Shown here: positions 1 through 25,000 of the stretch, in pieces
Layout of the letters: every line of letters begins with the position of its first letter
Position numbering within the stretch: the stretch's first letter is position 1
Assembly: GCA_030704615.1 (NCBI GenBank)
Contig: JAKLZA010000045.1
Span: 1 to 25,000, forward strand
Length of the DNA: 25,000 nucleotides
Source: Takakia lepidozioides
Lineage: Eukaryota; Plantae; Bryophyta
Direction: 5' to 3'
Notes under the pieces: model-generated
Seen by the model: only the letters and a program-made list of their open reading frames with translations
Told to the model about the DNA's origin: nothing
Databases searched by the model: none
Translations under genes and position numbers: made by a program

Positions 1-960
1 GGCGCCGAGGTCAACCTCGCCTTGAGCTCTTGAAAAGCTCGTTCTTGCTTATCTTCCCACTGTCACTCCTGGTCTATCTTGGTCAGCTTGGTTAGAGCCT
101 TTGAAATGGCACTAAATCCCTTGACAAACCGTCTATAATAGTTTGTCAACCCCATGAAAGCTCGAACTCGGCTCACATCCGTGGGGCGTGGAATATGTGC
201 AATGGCCTCTACCTTAGTCTGCTGTACCCCCAATGATCATCCAGGATATATCATGTGACCCACATACTCAATCTGGTTGTGGAAAAACTTGCACTTCCCC
301 GGATCTAACTTCAATCCGTGCGCCCTCGAGTGCTCAAATACCACCTGAAGGTGTCTCTCATGCTCCTCCACCGTTGCACTAATGATGTCATCTATGTAGC
401 ACTGAGCAAACTCCATCCCTGCTAGAATCCTGTCTATGACTCTCTAAAACTCTGCAGGAGCATTCTTAAGCCCAAATAATAAGAACCGCTACTGGTATAG
501 GCAATCCTTCCCGTACTCATTGATCCCCCAGAATGCCGTCTTCTGCTTATCCGTGCAACTGGTGATATCCGGATCGTAAATCCAAAGTGCTAAAGACCTT
601 GGCATGCCCAATGGCATCAAAGATCTCCTCTGGTGTTGGCATGACATACCTATCGGACTTGGTCTGACGATTTACAAGCCGGTAATCACCGCACATACGT
701 CTCTCCATCCAATTGCCATAGACATCCTTCTTGCCTGGCATCATTGTGGCTGAAGCATACTCTCCACCAGATAGCTCCACCAAACCAGCCTCCCAGAGGT
801 CTTGAGTCCTCATCTGAATCAAGGACCTCTCCATGTCACTGTATCTATAAGGTCTCTGAAAGATTGGCGTGTCAGTGGCCAATTCAATGCAAATCTCTTG
901 ACCCTTCAGTGCTCCTAAGTCTTTCAAACTGAAGGCAAAGCAGTTCCTGTAAGCCCTCAA
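1..960 (-). mobile_element. Ty3/Gypsy retrotransposon pol: reverse transcriptase and start of the connection region, decayed (stops and frameshifts), running off the window edge
   Basis: ORF 547-960 reads PIFQRPYRYS...EYASATM...RMCGDYRLVN...PTPEEIFDAIGHAKVFSTLDLRSGYHQL. Manual continuation gives KTAFW...FGLKNAPAEF*RVIDRIL...CYIDDI (YIDD at about 388-399)...GLKLDPGKCKF...VRAFMGLTNYYRRFVKGFS...AFQELKARLTSA. These are typical Gypsy RT motifs. In-frame TAG/TGA stops are present. Confidence 0.93.
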
Positions 961-1082
961 GAATCGCCGTATACATCGTCTCTCTCCTCCGGTGACTATG
1001 GGTCATTAGACTCCCAGTTGTCCTCCGTGATTGCAACCTTGAGTCCAGCAGGCTTAGAGGTAGAAGACGCGTCCCATGGTTG

Positions 1083-1983
1083 CTATGCTGCAACCTCTTG
1101 AGCAGTGACCACTACCTGCTCTGTCAGTGACAATGCCTCATCCTGCCCCATCATCTCATCCTTGAGGACCTCCTCAACCCGAGAAAAATCCCCAACCTCA
1201 TCCATCACCACCGCCTTGGCTGTCAACTCCCTTTGAACCTCGAGCACCTTCCACGTGTGCCATGGATGCGGCCTGCACCTTGTGGTCTTCACCTGTTCGC
1301 CCCCACTCACTGCCTGTATCGTCTCGGTAGGCAGAGAGACCATCAAGGGAATTAGTGTACTCCGTACTTTGCGCTGCTCAGCCATAGCCAAACTGATAAT
1401 CCAGGTCAAGCAATTGAGATCCATTGCTTGCCCCAACACCTGACGACGTGATGCCTCAGAAAGAGATGGCACCGCCGTGGTACCAGTGGTAAAACCCATC
1501 GCCCGCTCGTGCTCGTCAGCATTGGGCTCCACTAACTGCTGCAACTTAGCATCCCACATGAGGCCAGGTCCACTATCCCGGAAAGCATGAGATCCAGGAA
1601 AGCTGAGCAGTGTAGGTAGTGCTACTCGTGGTTGATCCATCCTGTTGACCAATGCCAAAGGTGACCGGTCATCGTGTTTCACATGCTGAGACTGCCTCCC
1701 TATGTCCAGAATGCTATCAACTGTCAGGTGCGTTGGGCGTTGTACCCCATCAAAAGCCCGCTTGAGCAGTGCGGGTGGCATCAAGTTGGTCCACCATAGC
1801 CGTGGACGATGAGCCTGTGACCCCACTGCAGCTGCATCCAGCAACACTGCCGATCCCAGCCAAGACCGGACTTGATGCACACTGGCCATCACCGTGGCCT
1901 AAGAATTATCCATCAATGGCACATTCTCCACGATATATGCCGGAGAGTCTGTCTGCTGAAGATGTAAATATCGCAATAGAAAC
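1083..1983 (-). pseudogene. C-terminal half of a DNMT3-like C5-cytosine DNA methyltransferase domain, directly upstream of RT in the Gypsy pol
   Basis: Same frame as ORF 1083-1892, extended upstream through one TAG at 1899-1901. Motif VI: PAYIVENVP. Motif VIII: LLDAAAVGSQAHRPRLWWTNL (compare DNMT3A IDAKEVSAAHRARYFWGNL). Motif IX: EHERAMGFTTGTT. Motif X: RRQVLGQAMDLNCL. Motifs I (FxGxG) and IV (PC) were not found upstream. Confidence 0.82.
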
Positions 1984-2109
1984 CTAATGTAAACAAGAGG
2001 CCAGGTGACATACTACACATTTAGATCCCATTACTCCTGCATCACTTACCAGCTGAAATCCTAATCATAATTCTAAACTAGCTGCTAGTAAAACAATTCC
2101 CCAAGTCTA

Positions 2110-2559
2110 ATAATAAAGTTATCCGTTAAGTGACCATCCCTTCCGCCCCCTAATACATCCCCACTACACCTCTCATGGGCACTTTGCGCCTATCCGGGAA
2201 GTCATGCAGATAGAGTACCAATAGAAAAACTAGGGACGGCAGCAGCGGGCCTACGCACAGGTTCGCTCGGATTTTCCTTTAAGTCAAAGTGGGCCCCGAC
2301 CCAGCCTCCATGCCTGCTTCCTTCCGCACCGCGCCACGTACCCTGAGAGGAAAACCAAACAGCAAATGCAGGATGAAACTCGTTTTGCCGTCATTTTGGT
2401 GCTATTTTGAGTTTGATCCTGTCTTGTTTTCGCTCGTATTTTAATTCCTTGTTCTTTTGACATTTATTGCATCTTAACCTCTCTTTTGGCCAAACTGGCC
2501 TAACTCACCCTCCATCCCCTCACCCTCCTTCCCCTAGACTTAACGGATAACTTTAATAT
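2110..2559. repeat. Pair of short inverted repeats about 400 bp apart
   Basis: TAAAGTTATCCGTTAAGT (2114-2131) is the exact reverse complement of ACTTAACGGATAACTTTA (2538-2555). The match extends to 22 bp with one mismatch. No TSD recognised. Confidence 0.7.
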
Positions 2560-2879
2560 CCTCATCCAATTTGCCTCCATCCCTTTTCCAACTACCCAGT
2601 GTCCATCCATAAGGTTAAGGAGGGGATCTTGGCCCCACAACCAAAAGAAAATTATATGCTAGCTCCATAAGTATCTAGAATACTCTACTCGGCACTACAC
2701 ACATCCACTTAATACTAAGAGGGATCCATGGATCTCCTCATTTCTCACTTCTTGCAGCTCAGATCCCATTCGCAGTATCATGGCCATTCTAGATAAGCTG
2801 CCTCTCTAGTCTTCCATTTTGCTTCTGAGCTCCCACTTAGCATTTCCAGCACCCTTCCCTTCCCACTCCCGTCTATCTC

Positions 2880-3043
2880 TGTTCCTTTTTTACTGTTTAG
2901 CTAGTTAGCTAGGGTCAGGGGGAAGTTTCCCCTAGTAAGCCTTCACGGCCTCTGTGGTGGTTATTTTTTCCACCTTTGTGACTATTTTTTCATTAATTTG
3001 ATTAAAAGGGCCTCTGTCCCCTTTCCAAAAAAAAAAAAAAAAA
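2880..3043 (+). mobile_element. Possible 3' end of a non-LTR retroelement (LINE/SINE-like) with poly(A) tail
   Basis: A T-rich, 3'UTR-like stretch ends in an A17 run at 3027-3043. No recognisable ORF2 remnant or TSD. Confidence 0.35.
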
Positions 3044-3146
3044 GAGGGGGTGGGGAAGATTTGACAGTGTAACCGCTGAAGGAGCGGACGTTTGCATTTG
3101 TATTACTAAAATTTAAGTTTGGCCTTGAGCGTCACGTTTTCATTTC

Positions 3147-3281
3147 TCCATAGAATATTTGTGGGATTTCCGTCAAAGATGCGGAATCAAGCGGCACGGA
3201 GGAAAGAGGAAGCTACGCTCCATAGAATATTCGTGGAATTGACTCGGAATCAAGCGGCACGGAGGAAAGAGGAAGCTACGC
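3147..3281 (+). repeat. Two-copy tandem duplication (about 63-72 bp) upstream of the DJ-1/PfpI gene
   Basis: CTCCATAGAATATT...CGGAATCAAGCGGCACGGAGGAAAGAGGAAGCTACGCT occurs twice back to back. Confidence 0.9.
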
Positions 3282-3512
3282 TGTGGGGTGCTAGACTGCA
3301 GCGCTCTCTCTCTCTCCCTCGTTTTCTCACTCAAACACACGACAAAGAAGAGAAGAGGCTTAGGTGATGATCTGCTTCGTCTCCCTATCAAGTTCATAGC
3401 CCCCAGAGCAGTGTCTTATATAGATTTGAGTTCACTGGTCGTCTCTATCTTCACCCCCTTAGCTGATTGAAGGAGTGAGACGAAGCGAATTAGGCAGAAC
3501 GTGAAAGCGGCC

Positions 3513-5763
3513 ATGGCGCAAAGCAGGGAGGGGCGGGTGCTGCAGGTTGCCATCCCCATCTTCAACGATATGACAGCTCTGGACTTAGTGGGGCCTTATG
3601 AGGTGCTGCACTTGGTGCCTGGTGTGCACGTAGTGTTTGTCAGCCATAGCCAGGGCCTATACTCTGCCGATGGCATGCTCTCCTTGCAAGCTCAGGCTTC
3701 CTTCGACGAGGTATTTTCAGAATTGCGCTACACGTATTCCTGTAGAGAAGGTGTATGGCTTGCTCACGGGTTTTGCATGCAATGCGCTTCCGTAGAATTC
3801 AGGAGAATGGTGCTTTTTTGTAGGTGCCAAGCCCCGATATAGTGTTGGTGCCTGGAGGACGTGGGACGCGTGTTCTTATTGAAGATCGGCCCATCTTAGA
3901 CTGGCTTCGCAAGGTAATTACCACCTCACGACTCTCAAAGGAGCAATTTGTGTGGCCTGGTTTCTCAAACTCACTCTCTCCACCAACCCTAGAATCCCCG
4001 GTGATAATCGACAGTAATGTGAATTGCATCGCAAGTAGCTGAGGTGGCTCGACATTCAGACTTCTGAAAAACTTCAGTGGTGTCGAGTTGTCCGTGTTGC
4101 ATTAGTTCATGTCTATGCTGAGAAAGGAAATTTGTCTGTGCAAGGGAGCAGGTCATGTCAGTCTATTATGATATTTTTAATTCAAGAGAACTTTGCATTG
4201 AAGGTGTTGCTGTTCTTCATTTTGCTGGCAATCAAAGAATCCGAACTCTCAATTTGTGTGATGGACTAATTGATGTGCATGTATGGCATTAATGGAAAGG
4301 TGCATGAGACAACCTTGTATACAACCTCCGTATGTACGGGCTCTCTTCTTCTAGCTGCTGCAGGCCTTCTTGATGGACTAGAGGCAACAACTCACTGGGC
4401 CGCTTTTGACTTACTGGCAAAACTTGGTGCAAAGCCCATCAGCTCCAGAGTAGTTCACCAGGTATGTACCTTGCAATTAAGTAACCAAACTTCAAAATAT
4501 TTTAGTGTGTGAGCGGATGTGATGATGCAGCTGTTAGAATCTGCCAGAGAAAGCACGGAACACGAAATGGATCCATGGAAAAATCAGAGGGCTTGTTAAT
4601 GCTGTTTTCTCACTAGCACACTTTAACCAAAGCCTTGTCACATCTGTAGATGTCGGAGGCTACAGTAGTAGTGCCAACATCATCCTTTGTCTTGTACAAT
4701 GTAGCCTTTATATCAGCTGTCAATAACCCCTTCAGCGGATCGTGTGAATTTGGGTGTGAGCCAATAACATAGAAAATCCAGGCTGAGTTTCATTCCTGGT
4801 TAGTTTATTCCGCAAGCCCCACAATTTGCTCCGAAATTGAAAAGGGTCGTTCCCCGATGTCATATCATACTACAAGGATGGTCAACGAGTACAGCAACTC
4901 TTTATAGCAGGAGGGGGTATAGCAGCAGTGTCATGATGAACCTCCATGTTTTCTACCATGAGGTCAACTCCAGCGTTTATATTAAGCTAAAGCCGAAGTA
5001 ACAAGTCTGTTATTGGCTGTGCATGGTATGCTTGGTTGAACCTGGTGCGCTGAAACCCTGGAACTACCTCCTGGAGGATCATTATCCGTTGTTGACCATG
5101 CCTTTGGAAGGATACCTCATAGTGAATGTTTGCTGTGGACATTGAGAATGAGTATATCTTTTCTCTCTTGCAATGATGATGGGTCTAGAGCCCGGTTCTG
5201 CATGACCTGGTCGACCTAATCAAATCATCACTGATCTTCAAGCAGAAGGTCCTCGCATTGTTGATTTTGTAGTTTCTGTTGAGCAGCATTATAATTATCA
5301 CAATCTATGTTTGATAGCTGTACGCCTGAATTTTGTTGAGCTTGTTTGATAGATCTATTACACATCTAGAGGTACTTGTAACAACTTAACTTATCAGTGG
5401 ACTGAATATACCTGTAGTTAAGTCACAAAATGGTAGAACCCCCTCTACCCCCTCACAGCCATATGAGTGCCATTCTACTGTCCATACAGTGGTAGAACTA
5501 ACCATAATGCATCATGTTCAATTGCCTGGGCAAAGGGAAAGATCATCACTGCAGCAGGAGTTGCATCGGGAATCGATATGGCTCTCGAGCTTGCGGCTCT
5601 GATTTCCGATGAAACAACAGCCAAGGCATTGCAGCTATTTATTGAGTACGACCCTCAGCCTCCATACAACACAGGGTCTCCAAGCAAGGCAGGTCCTGAA
5701 ATCGTAAGCAAGGCTAAGGAGCTTATGGCACGCGGACTGGCTTCCAAGTTGCGGGCTTCTTAA
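3513..5763 (+). CDS. DJ-1/PfpI family protein, isonitrile hydratase (InhA)-like, 225 aa; exons 3513-3710, 3824-3913, 4300-4461, 5536-5763
   Basis: The exons join in frame across three phase-0 GT-AG introns (678 nt). Motifs: [89 protein letters not shown]. Confidence 0.92.
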
Positions 5764-6671: not shown

Positions 6672-9600
6672 ATGGCAGGCATGATGCGGGGAGGTGGAAC
6701 TCCTCAGAGATCCACCCTCCCTTCTCAGGAGCTTCTGGATGATCTTTGCAGGTGGGTCAAGTTTTTAGTTCTCATTGTTTTGTGGGTTCGGTTGCAACTG
6801 TCAGCGGTAGTGCTAGCATCTGAGAGTGAATAGTTTATGCTGTGTGCAGCCGGTTTGTGTTGAATGCCCCAGAGGAGGAGCTCCAATCATTTGAAAGGAT
6901 TCTGTTCCTGGTGGAGCAAGCGCACTGGTTCTATGAAGACAACACAATGGAGCAAAATCACTCCTTAAAGACTCTGTCATTACGTGACTTCACCTCTTTA
7001 AGTATCCTATGGAATGCATATTTGCTTGAGTGTACGGTGGTTATCAAGTTTTCCAAGTTAAGATTGCTCTTGAAAGAAATGCAGAGAGGAGAGAAGACTC
7101 TGACCAGTCAAACTAGGCCATAACAATGAGACAAGATTCAAGCGCAGGTGATAGTGGTGCACACGGAACTTAGTAAAGAACAGGCATTGACTATCTGTAA
7201 GGCCCATTTTCTGGAGAGTTTCTCTAGGTATCCATCGAAATCACAGCTGCAAATGGCCGTTCATGAGTCCTCTCGAAGTGACTCCCGCGTCGAAGGATCA
7301 GGTGTAAGTGTGATCTATTCAGGGGGTTAAACTGGAAGACGTAATAGATGGCTACTGGGGTTGTATGATTGTTGTGTATCCATTGGTCTGCAGAACTTGC
7401 AATCTGCAAGAATTACATGGGATTGGGCTCAATCAGGCTTGTGTCTGTCTGTCCCAATCAATTGAAAAGAAAACTATTTGCTAAGCCATAATTTGTCTTG
7501 GTGGGATACTTTTTTTAGGATATAATGGAGGCTGCTAGGATGACACTATGTAATTTTTACTTTGCCTTAACCTTGCTATGCTGCAAGTGTTTCAGAGCTG
7601 TTCAGCATTGCGACCATACATAGGACACATTGATGATATCTATAAAGACTTCAAAGATTACAAGACTCGTGTGCCTGTGACTGGTGCCATAATTCTTGAC
7701 GATTCTTATGAGAGGGTGGGTACTGTTAGTACCTTTAGTGATTGACTTTCATGTGCTCTTAAAGTGAAGGATATAAATCAAAGGAAAAGGAAAGAATAGT
7801 AGGGAAGCATGCATGGAGATTTCACTTGCAAAGGTGGAGAGATGCTTATGAGTTGTGGCATGAAGATGATGTCGCCTCTGGAGGTGCAAGTGGGTTATTT
7901 TTGGCTTCCCACTAGGCTGTAGGTCTGGAATTTGTCTGAAGCTCTCCTCTGGTCATGCAGTGTTTGCTGGTGAAGGGTTGGAAAGCTGGTGCAAGCTGGA
8001 GCTTCCCTCGAGGCAAGAAGAACAAAGATGAGGAGGATTCCAACTGTGCCGTAAGGGAGGTAAGTTTTAGATTTTTTGTTGCACATGAAAACTATCCTTG
8101 GAGTGGACTGAAGCTCGAGTCTTCTACTAGGCTTCTCTAACTGTTCAACTGTCAGATGTCGTCCTCGGGTATTAGAGTGGTTGGCTAAAGGCTTGCTTAG
8201 CTCTGGGGGTCTTTACGACTTGATATAGCTCGCTTGTGCAAGACCTCTTGCAGTATGAGGCAGCTTCTCGGATAGACTGTTCTCTTGAGACTTTGTTTGC
8301 CATAGCCTTGTGTTCATAGACCCCTTCTCTGATAGAGATATGTAGACAGTGGTACATCGGCAGTACGTTGCCTGTAAATAACAATAAACATTGAAAGATT
8401 GGCATCCAGGATCAGAGTCAAGGACATTTGCTCACCCATGTAGCCTCTCAAAGTGTCGATGCTGGGATAGAATAAGCCTAGTATTGATGTGGATGTGCCC
8501 AACTTTGCAGGTATGGGAAGAGACAGGGTATGATGTGTCAGGGCAGCTGAAGGTGCAAGATCACCTGGAAGTGGTGATTGCGCAGCAGCGAATGCGCCTC
8601 TATATTATTGGGGGTGTCAAGGATGACACCCCCTTTGCTCCTCAAACCAAAAAAGAAATAAGTGTATGTTTCACAATGTGGCACACCTTGTATTTTATGC
8701 GCACCTTCTTAACCCTACCTTTCTGATCTGGAGAAATAATACGGCCTTGCTTAAAGGCTGAAAGGTGTGCTTGCTCAGTTAGAGTCATGTAAGTTATACA
8801 TTTTGTTCTATGCCAGATTACACCCACTCTGTCATGACCTCTCTATTGCAGCTGTGGTGTGCAGGAGATAGCCTGGCACCGAGTGGACGAACTGCCAACG
8901 GGAAGCAATGAGACCTCATCTCATCATCGGGGTCCAACTGGGCTCAAGTACTTCATGGTCTGGCCGTTTGTTGGGTATGTGTCCTACATTCACACTCAGA
9001 CTTTCTCATCTCTCCATCCTGGTAATAACAGCTGGGATGTTGCTGCGTTGAAAAACAGAGTCCTGAAATTCTCATGTTCTGTGCAACTGTGTGAGCTGTT
9101 CTGCTCAATAGTTCAGGTTTCCTTCTCATGAAGAAATCATGAGTCTCTATCATAGAGATCAGTTCAATCTGCTGTACAATGCCTTGAAGGAACTGGAGAA
9201 TTATGAGTAACTGATGATTAGATTCATGTGTGATTTCCCATGACTTGTTGGAGTGTGTTGCAAATAACAACGCTGTCTGCTGGGTGATACAGACCATTAC
9301 AAGAGTGGATAGTCACACACCGTCCTCCAGGGCTCCCAAGATCCGAGACTCCCATTAAAGGCACGGATACTTCCATGCTGTGTCTATTGTAGGAACTTCC
9401 CTTTACTGAATTGAGAAATCTAGGATTTCAGGGATGTGATTTCTGTAACCTTAGATGCGAGAGCCTTGTGCCCACTCTGAAGAGTTGGGGAAGAGGGGGA
9501 AGGGGGATGGAGAGGTAGGGGGGTAGAGACATGACCCCAACTGAAGTCATCATTGAGAGCCTCCTCCCCTTGCAGGTACTCTTTCGGGGGTGGGCATTGG

Positions 9601-11775: not shown

Positions 11776-14700
11776 CTATCTTGTTTTCGTGGTGTTCATG
11801 GTCAATCCAAATCCAAATGGGAAAAGCGGATCGTAGTGTTTGTCCCCGACGTTCATGGGTAGCTGGTCAACAGATCGGAACCATGTGTGAGGCAGCTTCC
11901 CTACGAAATCATAGTCCCCAAAAATCACATCAGCAATGCCATTGGCCTCACTGCCGGGGAGCCAAGCTGCAACAAGCGCGTCCATCAAGGGCAAATGGGG
12001 TTCCACCACCAGCGGCCTTCCAGAAACCAGTACTACTAAACACTTGACCGAGCCACAGACATTTTTGACGACCTCAATGCCTGGATGGGGGATGGTGAGG
12101 TTGAGGTTGTCACCCATTGTCTCTGCATAGGGTTCCTCTCCTATCACCACAACTGCATAGGCAAATCCTTTGTCCTTGGAAAATTCTCTGTTGGGAAATG
12201 GCTCGTACACTACTTCTGTTGAGTTGCTCACTGCCACTTTCAATGCCTTCCAAAATAGTTGCCATAGAAAAACCCATATCACCATTTCACGTGACTATTA
12301 CACATGACATGCATGTGCGTGTAAAATGGTGCTTTATAACGTCCGCGGAAAGCTCATAGAGCTTATGGGACAAAATGGAAAGAGAGAAAGAGAAAGGGCA
12401 CTTGGAGACAAAAGAGTCCGATAATGATATCGGAGACACTTGGAAGTTCAAGGATAAGCAAATGAAAAGAACGAGCAATCCTACCGAGTGTAGTGTTGCC
12501 CGAACTCCCTTGCCAAGTCATGGTCCATCCTCCACATTGCAAACCTATGTCATTCGCATGGAAGCCGACGACCAGAATCTTGTGTGCATCTCTATGCAGA
12601 GGTAACAATGGGGCTGACTTCGCAGTCTTCCCATTTTTCAGCAGCACGATGGACTTGCGCACAGCCTCCCGCGCGAGCACCCTATGTGACTGAGCACCAC
12701 CATGATAGAAATGCATTCAAATAACGTTGGTGTTAGGCGAGGAGTTGAGACAGGGTAGTCTAGAGCGAGAAATCTCGCAATCACAAAGATTAGCCGGGAT
12801 ACTGAACATTACAACCTCGATACAACAGCATCTGAGTAGCTAATTGCACTGTAAAAAGCAGCAAGTATGTGAGCGAGGATTACATGTTGCCCGATAAGAG
12901 ATGAGCGAAGCTTTCTGTCCGCAAGAGGCTTCTCAAAAAGACCCGTTTGGAGCTTGACTCGTAAGATGCGGCTAACAGCATCGTCAATCCGTGACATGGG
13001 TATATTGCCTAACCGAACTTCGAGCAGTAGATCCTCGATAAAGGTAGTATAACTCTGATTATTACATCACCTGTAGTGCCATTGAAAATTTCGGGCCGGT
13101 TCATAGAATCAGTGCATTGTGATATGAGAATTATAGATCTCCTAGATAGAAAGAGAGAGGACTTCGGAAGCTTGACTTCCAGCGATGTACAGAAACTTTA
13201 TAATCTGCACTTAAGGCCCTGGGCATTGGACAACGTATGCACAGCAAACCAAGAAGGAGAATCCATTTAGCAGTAACCTCGAGGGAGATAATGAATGCAT
13301 CAATTTTTAGGCTTACCATGTCAATGCCTGCATGAATTGACGTGAAGACAGAGTAGGTGTAGTTAGCATCGGGTGGAGTTGTGATTTTATCAATCCCATC
13401 GTAGTCTGAGATCGTAAACCCCTGCCACAACATGTAGCACCACAAACAAATCAAGACTAGGTCACATTATCAAGTGTGTCGATGCTGTAATTGTTGGAAG
13501 TCTTACATTAGCAAACTCCAGTGGCCCAGAACTGGATCAGAACACCTGCGAGCACGGTCTCACTAGCGAGGAATCGGATATAAATCCTCAGCTAGAATTC
13601 GCAGAGCACTTGTGGACACTGGTATTGTAGGAAAGTGGGAGAGGTCCTTCCTCCAGGTATCATTAGGTAGAGTAGACAAATCTTGGCATTGCAGGAAAAT
13701 CAGAAACACTCTAGGTCCTTATGCTCCCGGTATCATTAGCTACAGGTCTTGAGTTTAAATCTGTGCTTGTAACCAAAGCCAGAGATCGTGTAGCCATCTA
13801 TTGAACTGCTACATATGTGACTTGATTTAAGTCGTGCAGATCTTAGAAATTGTTCCATGAGATCATCTCTATCTAGAAACATTCAAGTACTTAGCCAATT
13901 GTCGACATTTGGGGTTTGCTTGAGATCTGCACAACAAACTACTTTGGAAGTCGTACCTTGAAGCCTATCTGGCCTTTAAGGACATCAGTAATGAGAAAGT
14001 GGTTGGCGTGCATCTTTATGCCGTTCCAGCTGGAGTAGGAAACCATAATAGTAGACACACCCTTGGCAACGGCATCGAAATAGGCCTTCATGTGGATGTC
14101 CACCAGGCCTTGGTAGCTAATCACTGTGTTATTCTCGTTGATGCCCTTCGTTGTGGCTCCATCTCCTACAAAATGCTTTGCGCAGGCAGCAACCTTGCGG
14201 CTTCTTGGGCCAACACATCCATCCCAGCCAGAGATGGATCATTGTGCGAGTGCTTATGCAGGTCTACATCGTGCTTGCATACTTCTAACATGTGTACATG
14301 TATGCGCATGTGTAAGTGATGGAGAATGCGGCAAAGGCCAGATAGATTTCAAACCACCATATAGACTTCGAGGTTTTTCAGAAAAGGTCCAACTGGAAAT
14401 TAACAATTAAACACTACATCAAGTAGGAAAGATCAGGAGAAGATCGCGCACCGGTTTTTCACATAAGGTCCTTTCCACCCCGCTGGAGCCTCACCCTGCA
14501 GTCCGTCAATGATTGAGGTCATGCTGCGAACCACTTCGGGGTTCTCGCTGTAGCTCTCGTAGCAGCGCCCCCACCTTGGGTCTCGAATACCTGCGCTCGA
14601 CCAAAGCACATAATTTGTAAACATTCATGAACAAATCCATCCTTCATTGCCAGTTTCACGCGAAACTCGTAAGGATATGCAAGAGATCTGACAGTGCTCA

Positions 14701-14984
14701 ATTCATAATTTAATGGTGTATTCATCTTGTTCCTGTTGTGCAATGATTGAGCACTACTGCACCCTACCCAAGAGAGCTCCAGGTGGACCTGACCTACAAT
14801 TCAGGGCTGTTCAAATCAGCAAATGTTTATTGACAAGCACTTCAGAAGATCTCGAAAAGTAATTTTGATCTCAAAAGGGCAGATCGTGCTGCATACCGCA
14901 ATGCAGGAGCAAACACAAGAGATTCCAGTTGCCCGAACCTCGAGGGCTGTGGCAGTCCCTATACGCTTGACCAATTCAGGCTCC
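11776..14984 (-). pseudogene. Glycoside hydrolase family 3 beta-glucosidase / beta-D-glucan exohydrolase pseudogene, 5' exons missing; exons about 14984-14897, 14590-14452, 14200-13957, 13421-13317, 13070-12884, 12689-12485, ~12262-11776
   Basis: Motifs: [140 protein letters not shown]. Lesions: exon 14590-14452 is 1 nt short; exon 13070-12884 is out of phase with TAA at 13064-13062; the last exon lacks an AG acceptor and has a frameshift near 12240. Confidence 0.88.
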
Positions 14985-15254
14985 CTGTACATAAGTGCAA
15001 CAGACAATCCAAGGTTACGTCGGGAGTGTCTGGAAGCAACATGCAACTACTGCAACCCGCAATTCTCACTCAGCAAAGATGGAGAATTTAAGGAGAAATC
15101 TGCTCAAATTGAAAGGAAGGACGAAAGCATGGATGATCCGACCTCCAGATTTGATATAGTCTATAATTTATTGAAGGAATAAGTTCAAGTATTATAATTA
15201 CTAATTGAAATAGATTTCCAAATCAAAAATCATAAATAAAATTTGAATTATTAC

Positions 15255-16617: not shown

Positions 16618-17825
16618 ATTACACATACGATTAAAAAACGGAATGAAAAAAAAATCATGAGCACGCGAAACACAGTCCAACAAGTCTCAAAGTAATAGCA
16701 GATCCAACGGAATTCATTCAACGGGCCAAATCATTTTTGTTTTATTTCAAACTTTGTCAGTATGTTTGGGATACCCTCTCACAGGTCCTGCACTAGGTAT
16801 TCTTCATACGTACCACTCCCCCAGCACCAGGAGTTGTGTACCAAGCGTGTATGCAACGTGCGTGCCAAATTTGGGAGCGAACAAAATTCATTTGGACCCA
16901 AAACCACAGTTTCTTCCCTGTTTTGCACTCTAAACTTGATTTGTGTTCTACTTCATGCACTCTTCATAGAGAGTTCTGCAATAGTGAGTGAAAAAAACAT
17001 TTTTTTTTTCGACATTTTTGGCGGGGGAGTAGAGGTGGGATGCTTGAAGCCGCAGAACAAAATCGAGTCAAAAACAAAATCGATACGTGGCAGAAACCCC
17101 CAATCAAAGGCAGTGTAAACCTAATTATTGGCTTAAAATTCATTCAAATTCAATTAAATTCTCGAATGGGTTGAGGGCTGAGCGCGTCGATGGGGAGGCA
17201 AATGATTTGTTGTTCTGTTGTGTCTCCGCACATGTGTCGCACACATGTTCAAGCACATGCTGGCAAAAGATGGGCGTCAACCACATCCGTTCAATGGGTG
17301 CAATAGTCGTGCACGCATTGCAGGATTTTTTTTTTCCGCAATGAACAAAAACTGGATGACAGGTGAACGCTTCATTGGCCCATCGAACAAATTTCAATTG
17401 ATCTCATACTACTCTGGGGCCTGTCAGATGGTACGTTGAACATGCTGGCCAAGTCTCGAAGCGAACGAAAGCCATTTGGATGGGAAACCATCCATTGGGC
17501 CATCAAACGAATTTCGTTTTATCTCATATTACTCTGGGACGTCTTAGATGGTACATTGAACATACCGGCCAAGTCTCAAAGCGATCCAAAATCATTTCGG
17601 TGGGCAACTATCCGTTGAGCCATCGAATGAATTTCGATTGATCTCATATTAGTCCGGGACCTGTGAGAGGGTGTCCTGAACGTACTGGCAAAGTTTGAAA
17701 GCAAACAAAAATGATTTGGATGGGCAACTCTCGTTGAATCTGCCATTACTCAGGGACCTGTTGGACTGCGTTTCGCGAGCTCATGATTTTTTTTTTCATT
17801 CCGTTTTTTGAACCGTATGTGTAAT
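16618..17825. repeat. About 177-bp inverted repeat arms (16618-16795 and 17650-17825)
   Basis: ATTACACATACG...AAAAAACGGAATGAAAAAAAAATCATGAGC...CCCTCTCACAGGTCC is matched, with scattered mismatches, by its reverse complement at 17650-17825. Confidence 0.9.
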
Positions 17826-18056: not shown

Positions 18057-18439
18057 AGTGACTACTTGGCAAATGACATAGTAGTAGAAGCTGAAAGATG
18101 TGCTGGTGAATTTATTGTGTGGTGCTGTCCCCACAAATGCTCCGTCCTTATCATGAACACTATCTGCAAGATTTACATGGAGTAATTATAAGTGCCAAGT
18201 TCCTTGTACTTGTTCGTGATCAACAAACATCAATAGCTCTTAAATATGATACAGCCCTGCACCTACTGTATAACACAATGTACCAAATCTAATTTATTAC
18301 AAACAAACTCCTACCATGATCCAGCTCAGTTGGGGAAATTCGCACGCCACACGTTGCAAGTGAAAGATATTAAAAAAAGAAGCCAAAGATTGATCAATGC
18401 CCAATCCACAAGCTTTGTTGACTTTGCAATGACTGTCTA

Positions 18440-19700
18440 GAAAGTCATGAAGGCACCAAGCCAACATCCAACTTGACAAATCGTTGGCATTGTTTCTTGA
18501 AGATATTGTGTATGCAACAGGGGTGCCATTCAGCCAAATGTCGAAGACCATAAGAGTATACATGGCATACTGCATACAAAGACGAAAATGTGCATTGTAA
18601 GTACTTTTGTTTTGAAAATAGGCAAAACATTTTACTGAAATTAATGACAAGAAATCACAGGAGGTGAACCCCGAACCCTGTAACCCCTTCTGTTCTCATT
18701 TTAGTATTATGTGATCCCCCATGTGGGCTATGCCATGATCCCCCGGAAGGAGACCATCCCTCCATCATTCCTCTCTATAACCCCCCAAGGCATGCATTTG
18801 CTAAGTTGTCTTCCCTTCTGCCGGCGCACCCCTCACTACGAATCACACAAGTACACGTCATGGTCCCAAAATGGTCCCAACATATACAGAGCAATATACA
18901 TAATGGAGTTTGGCCCATGTGTCTGGTCCCCTAATGGGCTGAGGCAGCCGTGGTGTCGAATTCGATAGGGGGATTAATAGGTCACTGGTGATGACCCAGT
19001 GTCGTGATCCCCTACACATCGGATAAAGCTATGCTCCCCCTGTGCCCCTGCTCTCCCTACTCCCCACTCAGTGACAGATGCTATGCTCTCATGCTCCCAA
19101 GAGTCCACGCCGTCAATTCACACACCTTGTGTTCATTGGTTCCAAAGGTTGCATCACAAGAGACGATTCGTTTGTCACCCATTTCGAACATTGTTTTTTT
19201 CTGAAATTATGTTTGAATGTCAATGGCAAATTTGAGGTCGACATTGCCGCGCCGTGTTCTTCCAACAGGGGCATCGGGCGTGTCCTCTCGATAGAAGAAA
19301 ACACTTTGGGGCTGGGCCTCCTTCCACATCTTCATATTGGTCCCCTCGTCCTTATGTCGCTTGAAAGTCTCACATGCAAGCTTGTCCATGATGTTTCTAA
19401 TGTCATGCTCAAGCACAACATCACAATGCGAATAAGCAGCATGCCATTACAAAGAACACACAGAGACCATCCAGAAACCACAGAGGTGAAGGCGGACTTT
19501 ATCACAAGAGAGCAACTATTGGCCCTTGGAGCTAAGAGCTCGCCTTCCTCATGCTTTCCCTTTTTAGGCACCGTTCTGTTGAAGTGAGCGGGAGCCTCTG
19601 CCCTTACTTCCTCCCCTCTCACAAAATCGTCAATCTTGCTCCAAGGAATGACCGCAACATCCATATTTACATGATGTCCACCTCCACTTGAAATAGTTGG
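18440..19700 (-). mobile_element. Decayed, intron-containing Mutator-like (MULE) transposase gene
   Basis: Fragments in order: VAVIPWSKIDDFVRGEEVRAEAPAHF; HDIRNIMDKLACETFKRHKDEGTNMKMW...SVFFYRE...FAIDIQT*FQKKTMFEMGDKRIVSCDATFGTNEHK|GT; and YAMYTLMVFDIWLNGTPVAYTISS. DATFGTN followed by Y.LYTL.VFD...G.PVA is the MULE DDE domain start. Premature TAA at 19207-19209. Confidence 0.82.
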
Positions 19701-20009
19701 AGTCATATAAGCGACCTGTGGTTGAAGGAACCATCCGGGGGGATTTGCAACGTGCCACGCATCTGTGATAGAAGGAATGACGTGCACAACTACGAACATC
19801 CAGTCATGATGCCCGGCACCTATGCAGGAACCGTACACAGCAGCAAACTACACGCACAAGTGCAGCATACACGCGTGCAAAGATGATCAAATCTGTGAGC
19901 AGCCGGAAACCCTAAATTTCATACATCCACTCCGTTCATCTCGCAGACCAAAATGGCGGGAGACGTGAATGGCCGTTGGATGGGGGAGGATGACACAGAT
20001 GAACAGAAT

Positions 20010-21880
20010 GATAGCCACGTGCAAACAGCCCTGACACTTGACACATGGAAGGGGGATGGCGGATGGGGGATCACGCCTGGTGGTGTGGGGGATGAACGGA
20101 GAGAAGACCGCCATGGGGGGGACGATCCCCTGTTCTGCCGTTGATTGGGGGGGGGGGGGGGGGGGAGCGACGGCTCGGGGGATCGCATCTTGGATGGGAC
20201 AAGGGGATTGACGGCTATGGAGACCGCCACGTGGTGGTAGAAGACGAGAGGGGGATCAATTGCCGGTTTGGACAGGGGATCAACCGGGGGGGGGGGGGGC
20301 GGGCAGGGGATCACCACGTGGATGGGAGGCCGGGATCGAATGCAGGGGAACCGCGGATGACCTAGTTTTGAGGTTGGATGGATGCGCAGGGGATCCGCAG
20401 TTCAGGGGAGCACCATGTGGCGGCCGATGGCTGGAGGGAGATCAGTAACCGCATTGGACGGGGATCAACCGGGGGGGGGGGGGGGGGGAGTGCCACGTGG
20501 CATCTCAGTGTCATGGGGCCTTCATCCGGCCATCGTCCATCCCCTGCGCGGGAGGATGGCGGGGGGATGAGGGGCGGATGACCCAGAACATCCATTATTT
20601 TGAGGTTGGATGGATGCGCAGGGGATTGACGGTTCAGGGGAGCAGCACGTGGCGGGCGATTAGGGGTGGGGGATCACTCCCGGTCCGGAGGGGGATCAAG
20701 CTAGGTCGGGGGAGTGGCAACGTCTCAGGGGATCGCACCGTGGATGGGACGAGGGGATCGGCGGTGGGGAGGGGGGAGCGCCACGTGCCGGCCGATGGAT
20801 GGAGGGGGATCGGTCACCGCATTGGACGGGGGATCAACCGAGGGTGGGGGGGACGTCTCGGGGGATCGGGCCATCGATGGGAAGAGGGGATCGACGGCGG
20901 GGGGAGCGGCACGTGGCCTGTCAATGTCATCAATGTCATCGGCCCTTCATCCGGCCGTCATCCATCCCATGCGTGGGAGGATGGCAGGGGGATGAGGGGC
21001 GGATGACACACAACATCCATTGTTTGTGAGATTGGATGGATGCGCAGGGGATCGACGGTTCGGGGGAGCAGCACGTGGCGCGCGATTAGGGTTGGGGGAT
21101 CACTCCCGATCCGGAAGGGGGATCAAGGCACGTCGGGGGAGCGGCGACGTCTCGAGGGATCGGGCCGTCGATGGGAAGAGGGGATCGACGGCAGGGGGAG
21201 CGACACGTGGCCTGTCAGTGTCATCGGCCCTTCATCCGGCCGTCGTCCATCCCCTGCGCGAGAGGATGGCGGGGGGATGAGGGACACACAACATCCATTG
21301 TTTGTGAGGTTGGATGGATGTGCAGGGGATCGACGGTTCGGGGGAGCAACACGTGGCGCATGATTAGGGTTGGGGGATCACTCCCGGACCGGAAGGGGAT
21401 CGAGGCACGTCGGGGGAGCGGCGACGTCTTAGGGGAGCGCGCCGTGGATGGGAGGAGGGGAACGACGGCGGGGGGAGCGCCATGGACGCGTCATGGGGCC
21501 TTCATCCGGCCGTCATCCATCCCCTCCGCGAGAGGATGGCGGGGGGGGGGTGTGGTGAGGGGCGGATGACCGACATCATCCATTTAATTGAGGTTAGATG
21601 GATGGGGAGGGGATCGACGGTTCGGGGGAGCGGCACGTGGCGTGGAGATGGGGATGGGGGATCACTCCGGCACTGGACGGGGGATCAACCCAGTGAGGGG
21701 ATCCACAGCGGGGGGCCGCCACATGGCTGGAGATCGGGCGGTGTTGTGGGGCGCCGCGTGGCCAGCGGTGGGGCAGGGATCAGGGGTCCCGGGCGGAGGC
21801 GGGCGGGCGGGGCAGCGGGCGGAGGGGTCGGAGAGGGGGGGGGGGGGGTGGGGATGATTTGACATGGGGGGGGGGTCCAG
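20010..21880 (+). repeat. GC-rich, G-skewed compound tandem array with about 230-430-bp units, upstream of the MULE transposase
   Basis: The unit anchor GAGGTTGGATGGATG(C/T)GCAGGGG (with minor variants) occurs at about 20370, 20602, 21028, 21306 and 21590. GCCCTTCATCCGGCC.TC.TCCATCCC and GGGGATC recur, along with several long G runs. Confidence 0.9.
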
Positions 21881-23231: not shown

Positions 23232-25000
23232 TGTGATGCCCCAAACTTTCCTCATCACAGATTTACCCGTTTCATCCAAAACGGCGATACACATTCATCG
23301 TATATTTTTTTGGCGTATAAAGCCGTTAATCCGTTACAATGATGTTTAGGTTAGGGTTGGTTTAGGCTGGTGGATTGATCCTGGCCCTTCGTTAGATCCA
23401 GGGCTGCAAGGCAGCACCATGGGCTTGGGCCTATAATGCCTCGCCACGCGGCGGGCCACTAAGGTTAGGGCTTTTGTATAAAGACGGCGCCCTGACACAA
23501 GGTCGGGGCGGTGTACTCGGGTGTTGCTATATATGTGATTTGGGTGTACAAGTTTTTGGATGAGCGTTGCTTAGTGTCTGATTCGTGTGTTTGATCCTCC
23601 TCTCGCGCACTGCTTGCTCTTTCCGCTTGCCCCTTTGTTGTGCAAGTTCACTTCTTGAAAGGAAAGGAGTATATGCTTCAGGCTTGTTTTATGGTGGAGT
23701 GAAGTCAGGTACTCTAGGCGTGGTGGATCCTGCCCGCACTATCAGGATCAGTTAGGTCCTTCGCGGGATTTGCTCTACGTCCTGCTGCCTAAGTGGTTCG
23801 CTAATGCGTGTTATCGATGGCGGTTCCTCACTTTGCCCTATTTTCTCCTGATGCTGTGATTTTGTCGTCTCACGATGTGCATTGGGGGTGATTGCAGGGG
23901 ATGGCTACAGTTCGTGATTTGTCTTGTGTAGCTCGCAGAGAGGGGGAGAGCCTATTCCTTCATATTAGCGTGGCACTTGCTATCGAGGCTAATCCTAGTG
24001 TAGAGACTGAACCTGCTGCTTCTCATTCTGCTGGTGTTGTTGTGGTTGCTCCTCCCGTTGTCTCTAACCCTATTGACACTCTTGTTATTACTAACACTAC
24101 CAACGGCGTGCGGCCTGCCATTGTTGCCTTGCCGGCATCGCCTCTTCCTGAGCCTGCTGCTGGCGTTCCAGCCCTTGTTGTTTCATTGGGTTCTCCTAGT
24201 GGTAGTGATTATGATGATCTGGGGGAGGCAGAGGCGTGGTCGCCAAGGTTTGAGAGGTCTGACAGCTCTCTAGATAGCTGTGACCCGGACTACTATAACT
24301 TTGACAATTTTGTGGATCCAGGCCCTGAATATTTTGAGAGTAGGCAGCAAGCAGCCGAATTGGAGAGAGACATTGAATTGTCAAAAGAATTAGATGATCT
24401 GCTGTGTGAAGTATGTGACGAAGATCAGCTTTGGTTTGAGCATGTAGAGAGAGCTGTTGCAGGTGATCTTGCTGCACTGACCAGTCATCACGAGGCCCTG
24501 TTCACACGACCTTTGCTTGAGCCTGGTGTGGTGATATCCAGGGCCAGACAGCTTGTTAAGCGCGAATTTGAGCTACAAAATGAAGAGCGTCTACCATCCA
24601 AGGCGATCAAGTCGCGTTTTCTAAACCATCGTGAATTAACCTGGTTGGAAGTTGGTTTGTATCTGCCTCTTTCTGGTGTTCGAAGTACAGAGCTTCATCA
24701 TGGCCCTGGCGTGGTAGGGAGAAGTTGGTTGTCGTTAATGTTACAGGGCACAGGGGCTTTGATCTTGAGGACACTACGGTTTCAGCTCCGGCCTTGCGCC
24801 TTGGCACCTACCTATTCATAGTTAATTGATGGTCTGACGGGAGGGGCCTTGATAGTACAGTCGTCTGATCTAGTGGTCTTGGGTGTGGGCACTGCCTTTG
24901 CTTCACAGCGAGTGGCTCGCCCGAGCGCGTTTGAGAGACTGAGTGATTGTTCAAACTCGACTGTGCTTTTGCGCACCTGGAGAGAGGGTGACACCACCCG
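23232..25000 (+). mobile_element. Probable 5' part of an LTR retrotransposon, continuing beyond the window
   Basis: It begins TGTGATGCCCC (a Gypsy-like LTR start) exactly where homology to the DJ-1 intron stops. It has TTAGGG motifs, TATAAA at 23477 and a long ORF downstream. No PBS or LTR end was identified. Confidence 0.5.
23892..24821 (+). CDS. Unknown protein of about 306-309 aa (first ATG 23901), probably encoded by the transposon
   Basis: 930-nt uninterrupted frame with a Pro/Ala/Val-rich N-terminal part, an acidic middle and a helical-looking C-terminal part. Coding-like sequence continues past the TAG. No recognised motif. Confidence 0.45.
   Translation: MQGMATVRDLSCVARREGESLFLHISVALAIEANPSVETEPAASHSAGVVVVAPPVVSNPIDTLVITNTTNGVRPAIVALPASPLPEPAAGVPALVVSLGSPSGSDYDDLGEAEAWSPRFERSDSSLDSCDPDYYNFDNFVDPGPEYFESRQQAAELERDIELSKELDDLLCEVCDEDQLWFEHVERAVAGDLAALTSHHEALFTRPLLEPGVVISRARQLVKREFELQNEERLPSKAIKSRFLNHRELTWLEVGLYLPLSGVRSTELHHGPGVVGRSWLSLMLQGTGALILRTLRFQLRPCALAPTYS

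Follow-up and report, generated by a model that had tools for sequence, protein, structure and literature searches.

Does a land plant carry a retrotransposon that brings along its own cytosine methyltransferase, and what would such an enzyme do for the element? The question is raised by the beginning of a 25,000-nucleotide stretch of DNA (hereafter, the window), where the original prediction, made from the letters alone, had recognized a DNMT3-like domain directly upstream of a Gypsy reverse transcriptase (RT). Cytosine methyltransferases borne by retrotransposons have been reported in dinoflagellates and in a single charophyte alga, organisms that are not easily manipulated. We hold it as nearly certain that the element is a Gypsy retrotransposon with a DNMT3-type domain. 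The fuller reading, which we favor to a modest degree, is that the copy in the window is dead and has lost its 5' part, that it belongs to a highly repeated Gypsy family, likely of a moss, with the methyltransferase placed between protease and RT, and that live copies would methylate their own new DNA before integration. For this last part, self-methylation as the role of the domain, the sequence evidence tips the balance slightly beyond even.

The features of the window copy and of its surroundings are collected in Table 1. As had been claimed, the C5-methyltransferase motifs ENV, VIII, IX, and X follow each other in order upstream of the RT, all of them in a common single frame on the minus strand of 1975-1377, and the TAG said to hide ENV is present as well. 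Whole relatives compared to the window by tblastn give an unbroken match from 1979 to about 1200 that makes an intron unnecessary, in keeping with the predicted lack of introns. Between the domain and the RT lie, also much as predicted, only one stop and one net frameshift. The spacing between motif X and the RT motif is 740 nt in the window versus 675 nt in seven of eight relatives, and other copies in the host reads have indels near 1107, within this linker. The RT itself has a frameshift near 553 and four stops (491, 446, 239, and 65), and is recognized by Pfam RVT_1 on 240-443 (E 2e-10) and by 66-73% identity to the Marchantia protein P0011.

The upstream limit of the domain had to be redrawn: homology to the methyltransferase had been taken to reach 1983, whereas the real homology ends at 1975/1976. 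Other copies in the host reads run on upstream past 1975, matching the helix that precedes ENV in Marchantia proteins (30 letters are visible), and single contigs of the read runs X1 and X3, possibly the sample from which the window itself came, span the joint without difference. A search of the window upstream of the break with the relatives gave no match to motifs I-IV, protease, gag, or the repeats (A, B, or LTR). The window copy is dead and 5'-truncated, as had been proposed: with motifs I-IV lost it cannot be active, and stops, frameshifts, and the missing protease and gag complete the picture.

Table 1. Features of the window copy and its flanks, by position in the window.
Feature	Position	Strand	Remark
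Gypsy RT and start of RNase H region, decayed	3..1002	-	runs off the window edge
RT YIDD	398-387	-	
Linker, DNMT to RT	1003..1376	-	stop at 1085-1083 and net frameshift
DNMT3-type C5 cytosine methyltransferase, C-terminal half, motifs VI-X	1377..1975	-	one stop inside; motifs I-IV absent
Motif X, LGQAMD	1436-1419	-	
Motif IX, ERAMGF	1508-1491	-	
Motif VIII region, DNMT3-type AHRxRxxWxNL, DAAAVGSQAHRPRLWWTNL	1838-1782	-	
In-frame TAG stop	1901-1899	-	private to the window copy; other letters in most family contigs
Motif VI, ENV	1928-1920	-	aligned to the DNMT3A ENV via P0001
Break point, 5' part of the copy lost	1975..1976		loose ends of other copies begin at 1975
Unrelated sequence, low-copy for the most part, with a 17-A run at its end (3027-3043)	1976..3043		
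DJ-1/PfpI, intron-bearing host gene	3471-5763	+	
DCP2, intron-bearing host gene	6830-9100	+	
GH3 beta-glucosidase, intron-bearing host gene	11779-15019	-	

Taken by itself, the half-domain in the window scores weakly, with only E 0.12 against DNMT3A and no match in a Pfam scan, where the original prediction had proposed to look for PF00145; its identification as a DNMT therefore rests on whole relatives. A search among proteins of 476-2000 residues found 27 of them, with a best E of 1e-88, far beyond chance (12 from Marchantia polymorpha, one from Calypogeia fissa, one from Sphagnum fallax, and the rest without a plant name), and 22 of these 27 do match PF00145. The half-domain is 59-68% identical to the Marchantia and Calypogeia proteins, and 73% identical to the metagenome locus L001. 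The uninterrupted Calypogeia domain, P0001, is closest to DNMT3A (E 8e-11), followed by DRM2 (2e-4) and HhaI (3e-3), and a profile of the family repeats this order (6e-17 against DNMT3A; 1e-6 and 8e-6 for DRM2 and HhaI, respectively). The AlphaFold model of P0001 reaches block pLDDT values of 86-98 across the domain, and its top Foldseek matches are DNMT3B, DNMT3A, and DNMT3C (E 4e-17). By sequence and by fold, the methyltransferase of the whole relatives is thus of the predicted DNMT3 type, matching DNMT3A/B ahead of DRM2 and the bacterial enzymes, and is not rearranged in the manner of DRM. As judged from alignments and the modeled structure, the relatives are shown to keep all the catalytic motifs together with the DNMT3 fold.

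A host DNMT3 pseudogene lying by chance beside an unrelated Gypsy RT could look similar, the more so in a truncated copy with lesions between DNMT and RT, but the recurrence of the arrangement leaves this explanation practically negligible. Of 144 confirmed metagenome loci, 80 were kept, representing 61 clusters at 97% identity. Among these, the RT follows the DNMT, with recurring order and spacing, in 56 of the 63 loci with room for it, the N-terminal half of the DNMT lies upstream in 65 of 66, and a protease lies upstream in 38 of 50; DNMT and RT share a frame in seven of the eight loci checked. Repetition in the host was gauged on contigs of public read runs. Run X1 gave 15,925 contigs on 1-3600, and the summed depth in host reads is 3.6e5-1.0e6 over 1-1920 versus 73 at 1980-2049, a measure that is not a copy number and supports only the statement that the element is highly repeated. 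Allowing for the overlap of short contigs, we infer at least hundreds of host copies. The DNMT and RT parts are equally repeated in the host reads, and the trees of the two domains place the window beside the same bryophyte elements. The expected linkage of DNMT and RT is therefore a recurrent one, and a single-copy domain, which had been named as grounds for giving up the prediction, is not what was found. Run X8, only guessed as RNA, gives one contig that covers 1-1463 with 105 differing letters, and run X9 gives none on 1860-2140; nothing is concluded from either.

The closest loci are of the Sphagnum type: the integrase stretch of L001 is 100% identical to S. fallax P0015, and its DNMT is grouped with S. 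troendelagicum with a support of 100. The window element is about 70% identical in DNA to these loci. Across the relatives, the domain order is gag-protease-DNMT-RT-RNase H-integrase, with the RT-RNase H-integrase part seen in L001, L010, L049, L056, and L080, and P0156 is a single 2188-aa protein with the order CCHC-DNMT-RT-RNase H-integrase. These relatives carry an rve integrase, and not the tyrosine recombinase that marks DIRS and Ngaro elements. Contrary to a host gene, which would be intron-bearing, low-copy, and unfused to an RT, the domain is intronless, RT-fused, and highly repeated. By eye, the end of the integrase (L049:11700-11900, also in L056 and L080) is a C4HC3 PHD-type finger, with no chromodomain; Pfam PHD matches occur in distant relatives only. 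Some old copies (L059, L062, and L064) have internal inversions, with pieces of DNMT and RT on both strands.

The flanks agree with the land-plant genome that had been predicted, since the neighboring genes are of land-plant type and GH3 is grouped with Sphagnum (99 SH-aLRT, 71% identity). The host is likely a moss, a placement drawn from one gene, GH3, and a quickly built 32-row tree that includes a single named moss. We consider it very improbable that the element stems from an algal contaminant or a misjoin, outside the land-plant genome: even though none of the contigs listed reaches from the element into the host genes, the joint at 1975/1976 is crossed by the contigs mentioned above, and the closest named relatives sit on multi-megabase sequences of Marchantia, Calypogeia, and Sphagnum.

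Several other segments of the window were noted. A repeated segment (2880-3043) closes with the 17-A run and is possibly a LINE or SINE 3' end. A PF00145 match at 8388-8723 (E 0.039) was rejected as likely due to chance, as it falls inside the DCP2 gene. The segment 16618-18056, with three 120-bp tandem copies (17373-17728) within inverted and direct repeats (170 bp, 95%), is possibly a non-autonomous DNA transposon, and the decayed frames at 18300-19850, with a weak ZSWIM RNase H-like match (E 0.09), are possibly the remnant of a Mutator-type transposase. Further on lie a degenerate, G-rich array (20050-21700, 65% GC) whose units measure about 140 and 280 bp, and an open frame of 309 codons (23892-24821, plus strand) with no Pfam match and no usable Atlas match.

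No intact land-plant element was seen: all 80 metagenome loci are decayed, the longest stop-free frame among them has 508 codons, and the gene models of Marchantia may have been joined across lesions. Of 54 decayed copies, 52 retain the catalytic PC, and LFGG is present in 47 of 51. Between the window and the Sphagnum-type copies, pN and pS are 0.20 and 0.76 for the DNMT, and 0.19 and 0.82 for the RT; the DNMT is under purifying selection, like the RT. The signal is weaker within the Sphagnum-type copies, where dN/dS is 0.73 for the N-terminal half of the DNMT and 0.47 for its C-terminal half, versus 0.33-0.34 for RT, RNase H, and integrase, all of these values being inflated by decay after insertion. 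A weaker constraint on the DNMT within this lineage is possible. The value of the N-terminal half, the highest of six domains, would suit a domain kept for a non-catalytic role (nucleic acid or SAM binding, or a decoy for the host DNMT3) or for RNA methylation, and so would the domain of the Klebsormidium nitens element, KnitGypsy-Dnmt3, which did not methylate DNA in yeast, a result that its authors call inconclusive (PMC5890265). We regard such a role as quite unlikely, given that 38 divergent relatives share without exception the catalytic C, the E in ENV, and the R in motif VIII, and that the fold is that of DNMT3 and not of DNMT2.

As for the role of the domain in live copies, the DNMT would be translated and packaged along with the RT and, since both are in the same polyprotein, the element's own new double-stranded DNA would be the most likely substrate. 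Methylation would probably take place at CG, as for other DNMT3 domains, and the mark may disguise the new copy as host DNA, or may set its silencing state. De Mendoza et al. argue likewise that the new DNA of the element is the likely substrate, and the Symbiodinium DIRS-Dnmt3 domains, the only members so shown, performed de novo CG methylation in yeast (PMC5890265). Alternatively, an active DNMT could have host chromatin as its main target, in trans or at the insertion site and its surroundings, and be steered there by the PHD finger of the integrase. Sphagnum-type integrases do end in such a finger, and in the distant relatives that match Pfam PHD the DNMT lies directly before the integrase; in the window family, however, it lies between protease and RT, away from the integrase, and the Klebsormidium methylome is not unusual (de Mendoza et al. 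2018, PMC5890265), which makes action on the host a somewhat unlikely role. The CpG observed/expected ratio is 0.54-0.59 in the element versus 0.43 in the host genes; as depletion in the element is no stronger than in these genes, it is uninformative on self-methylation.

Both element ends are missing from the window copy, and the split repeats are known from the Sphagnum-type relatives. The arrangement A-coding-B-A-B is whole in L048, L049 (3416-12621), and L056 (1766-10971); the 3' B-A-B part is found in L011, L012, and L042, and L001 is cut after B-A. All five distinct loci with two ends have a 4-bp target duplication, and the ends are TG..CA or decayed forms of it. The inner B|A joint reads CA-NN-TG, with a 2-nt spacer, in seven of seven loci; L001 and L012 have it as a perfect palindrome of 10 bp. 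At the second A|B joint the repeats abut without a gap in five of six loci, and this is the very point at which L056 carries a filler of 19 nt. A G-rich tract stands directly before the first B. In the alignment of relatives, no tRNA-type TGG follows the first A; a 12-nt segment found there has its complement within A, which resembles the Tcn1 elements, for which self-priming is predicted (PMC6317226), though this segment also makes up one arm of a hairpin formed locally.

The structure of these ends suggests that the element integrates from a circle with two LTRs, opened within the LTR. Reverse transcription, perhaps self-primed, would define an LTR made of B+A; the cDNA ends would then be joined into a two-LTR circle, and the DDE integrase would cut the CA-NN-TG palindrome inside the LTR to give the A-coding-B-A-B form. 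In the literature found on split-repeat Gypsy integration, including the available text of PMC11899658, this route was not found described, and the end structure of the relatives makes it a testable, if unusual, one. Elements of the form A-coding-B (L010, L044, and L080) were considered as evidence for a one-LTR circle and rejected: since the same flank is found beside L042 (B-A-B) and L044 (B only), these elements are accounted for by recombination or by collapse in the assembly.

The family extends well beyond the closest relatives. A profile search of shorter proteins added, among the best 120 of 645 matches, M. paleacea, Riccia sorocarpa, S. troendelagicum, and S. tenellum, and cluster look-ups added Closterium and Scenedesmus. 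No named vascular plant was among the matches listed, which is weak evidence of absence, and no named Klebsormidium sequence was among those listed by the protein, profile, and cluster searches. P0340, with a bacterial-MAG label and a 2.4-kb contig, is probably misbinned. In 92 related proteins of at least 900 residues, the DNMT lies after RT/RNase H in 50, before RT in 13, after gag/protease without an RT in 17, and before the integrase without an RT in 11, with one unclassed. P0188, P0182, P0161, and about 50 alike have a Gypsy Pol with the DNMT between RNase H and integrase, a type whose only named member is from the chlorophyte Scenedesmus. This type forms one side of a branch with a support of 98 in the DNMT tree and 99 in the RT tree, both of them quick, midpoint-rooted trees of hand-chosen rows (53 and 51, respectively) with no host DNMT3 sequence included; the row "noDNMT" of the RT tree begins at a contig edge, and its label is uninformative on DNMT presence. 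The window groups with elements of liverworts and mosses (support 99, 16 rows), and the Sphagnum members fall into two subgroups, which fits an old lineage. UniRef names P0002, P0319, and P0341, transposon pieces from Marchantia and Sphagnum, DNA (cytosine-5)-methyltransferase; some such entries would therefore be pieces of transposons, and could inflate counts of host DNMTs.

A broader picture can be put forward tentatively, even though we remain inclined to doubt it: an ancient green-plant Gypsy lineage, abundant in some mosses, that would integrate from a two-LTR circle by the palindrome cut, with its DNMT3 methylating the circle before insertion, and whose DNMT would have changed its place in Pol (following RNase H in the chlorophyte type, preceding RT in streptophytes), rather than a capture confined to Klebsormidium. 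If this is true, the carriage of a methyltransferase would be linked, in DIRS and Gypsy elements alike, to circular intermediates.

No report of a land-plant Gypsy-Dnmt3 was found in the literature searched, which leaves out most subscription journals and Repbase, and includes the available texts of PMC12344493, PMC6453930, PMC11982613, PMC10952607, 10.1101/363937, and 10.64898/2026.05.21.726589. The name "KnitGypsy" occurs in this literature in PMC5890265 only, whose main text makes no mention of Marchantia, Physcomitrella, or embryophyte, and whose genome table gives nine DNMT genes for Physcomitrella and 10 for Selaginella. Two later papers speak of "streptophytes" with no species named, and their supplements, like the large one of 2018, may include bryophytes; the preprint 10.64898/2026.05.21.726589 lists "streptophytes (Gypsy-DNMT3)" as a separate, earlier case. 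This is, then, a known kind of element, whose occurrence in land plants (moss and liverwort) is new to the literature found. Also new here are the integration route that the relatives' ends suggest, and the distant relatives that, by their sequence, carry the DNMT after RNase H. With the same kind of element in Marchantia polymorpha, where CRISPR mutants of the maintenance methylase exist (10.1101/363937), self-methylation becomes testable, if a naturally intact copy exists.

Among known systems, the original prediction had correctly named the retrotransposon methyltransferases of Symbiodinium and Klebsormidium (de Mendoza et al. 2018, PMC5890265). As described there, KnitGypsy-Dnmt3 resembles the window family in its intronless, unrearranged Dnmt3-type domain within the Gypsy Pol frame, in its purifying selection, and, as far as the relatives of the window copy go, in its conserved catalytic residues and its DIRS-like split repeats with Gypsy domains (A-coding-B-A-B in the Fig. 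4 legend), a comparison by description that does not extend to the position of the DNMT in the KnitGypsy Pol. The differences are that the family studied here belongs to a land plant, in which it is repeated far more often, and that the window copy is truncated. SymbioDIRS-Dnmt3 shares the Dnmt3 domain in an RT polyprotein and, with the Sphagnum-type relatives, the A-coding-B-A-B repeats (PMC5890265), but is a DIRS element with a tyrosine recombinase, whereas here there is a Gypsy RT, with a DDE integrase and 4-bp target duplications in the relatives. The EpiLTRs/DAM-LTRs are likewise Gypsy-like LTR elements with DNA methyltransferases and a chromatin reader, but their DNMT is sister to DNMT4 and is accompanied by DAM and a chromodomain, unlike the window family (10.64898/2026.05.21.726589). 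Finally, PpDNMT3b, a host DNMT3 of non-flowering plants, has the same linear-order DNMT3-type catalytic domain, distinct from DRM, but is a host gene outside any retrotransposon Pol, unlike the element in the window (Yaari et al. 2019, PMC6453930).
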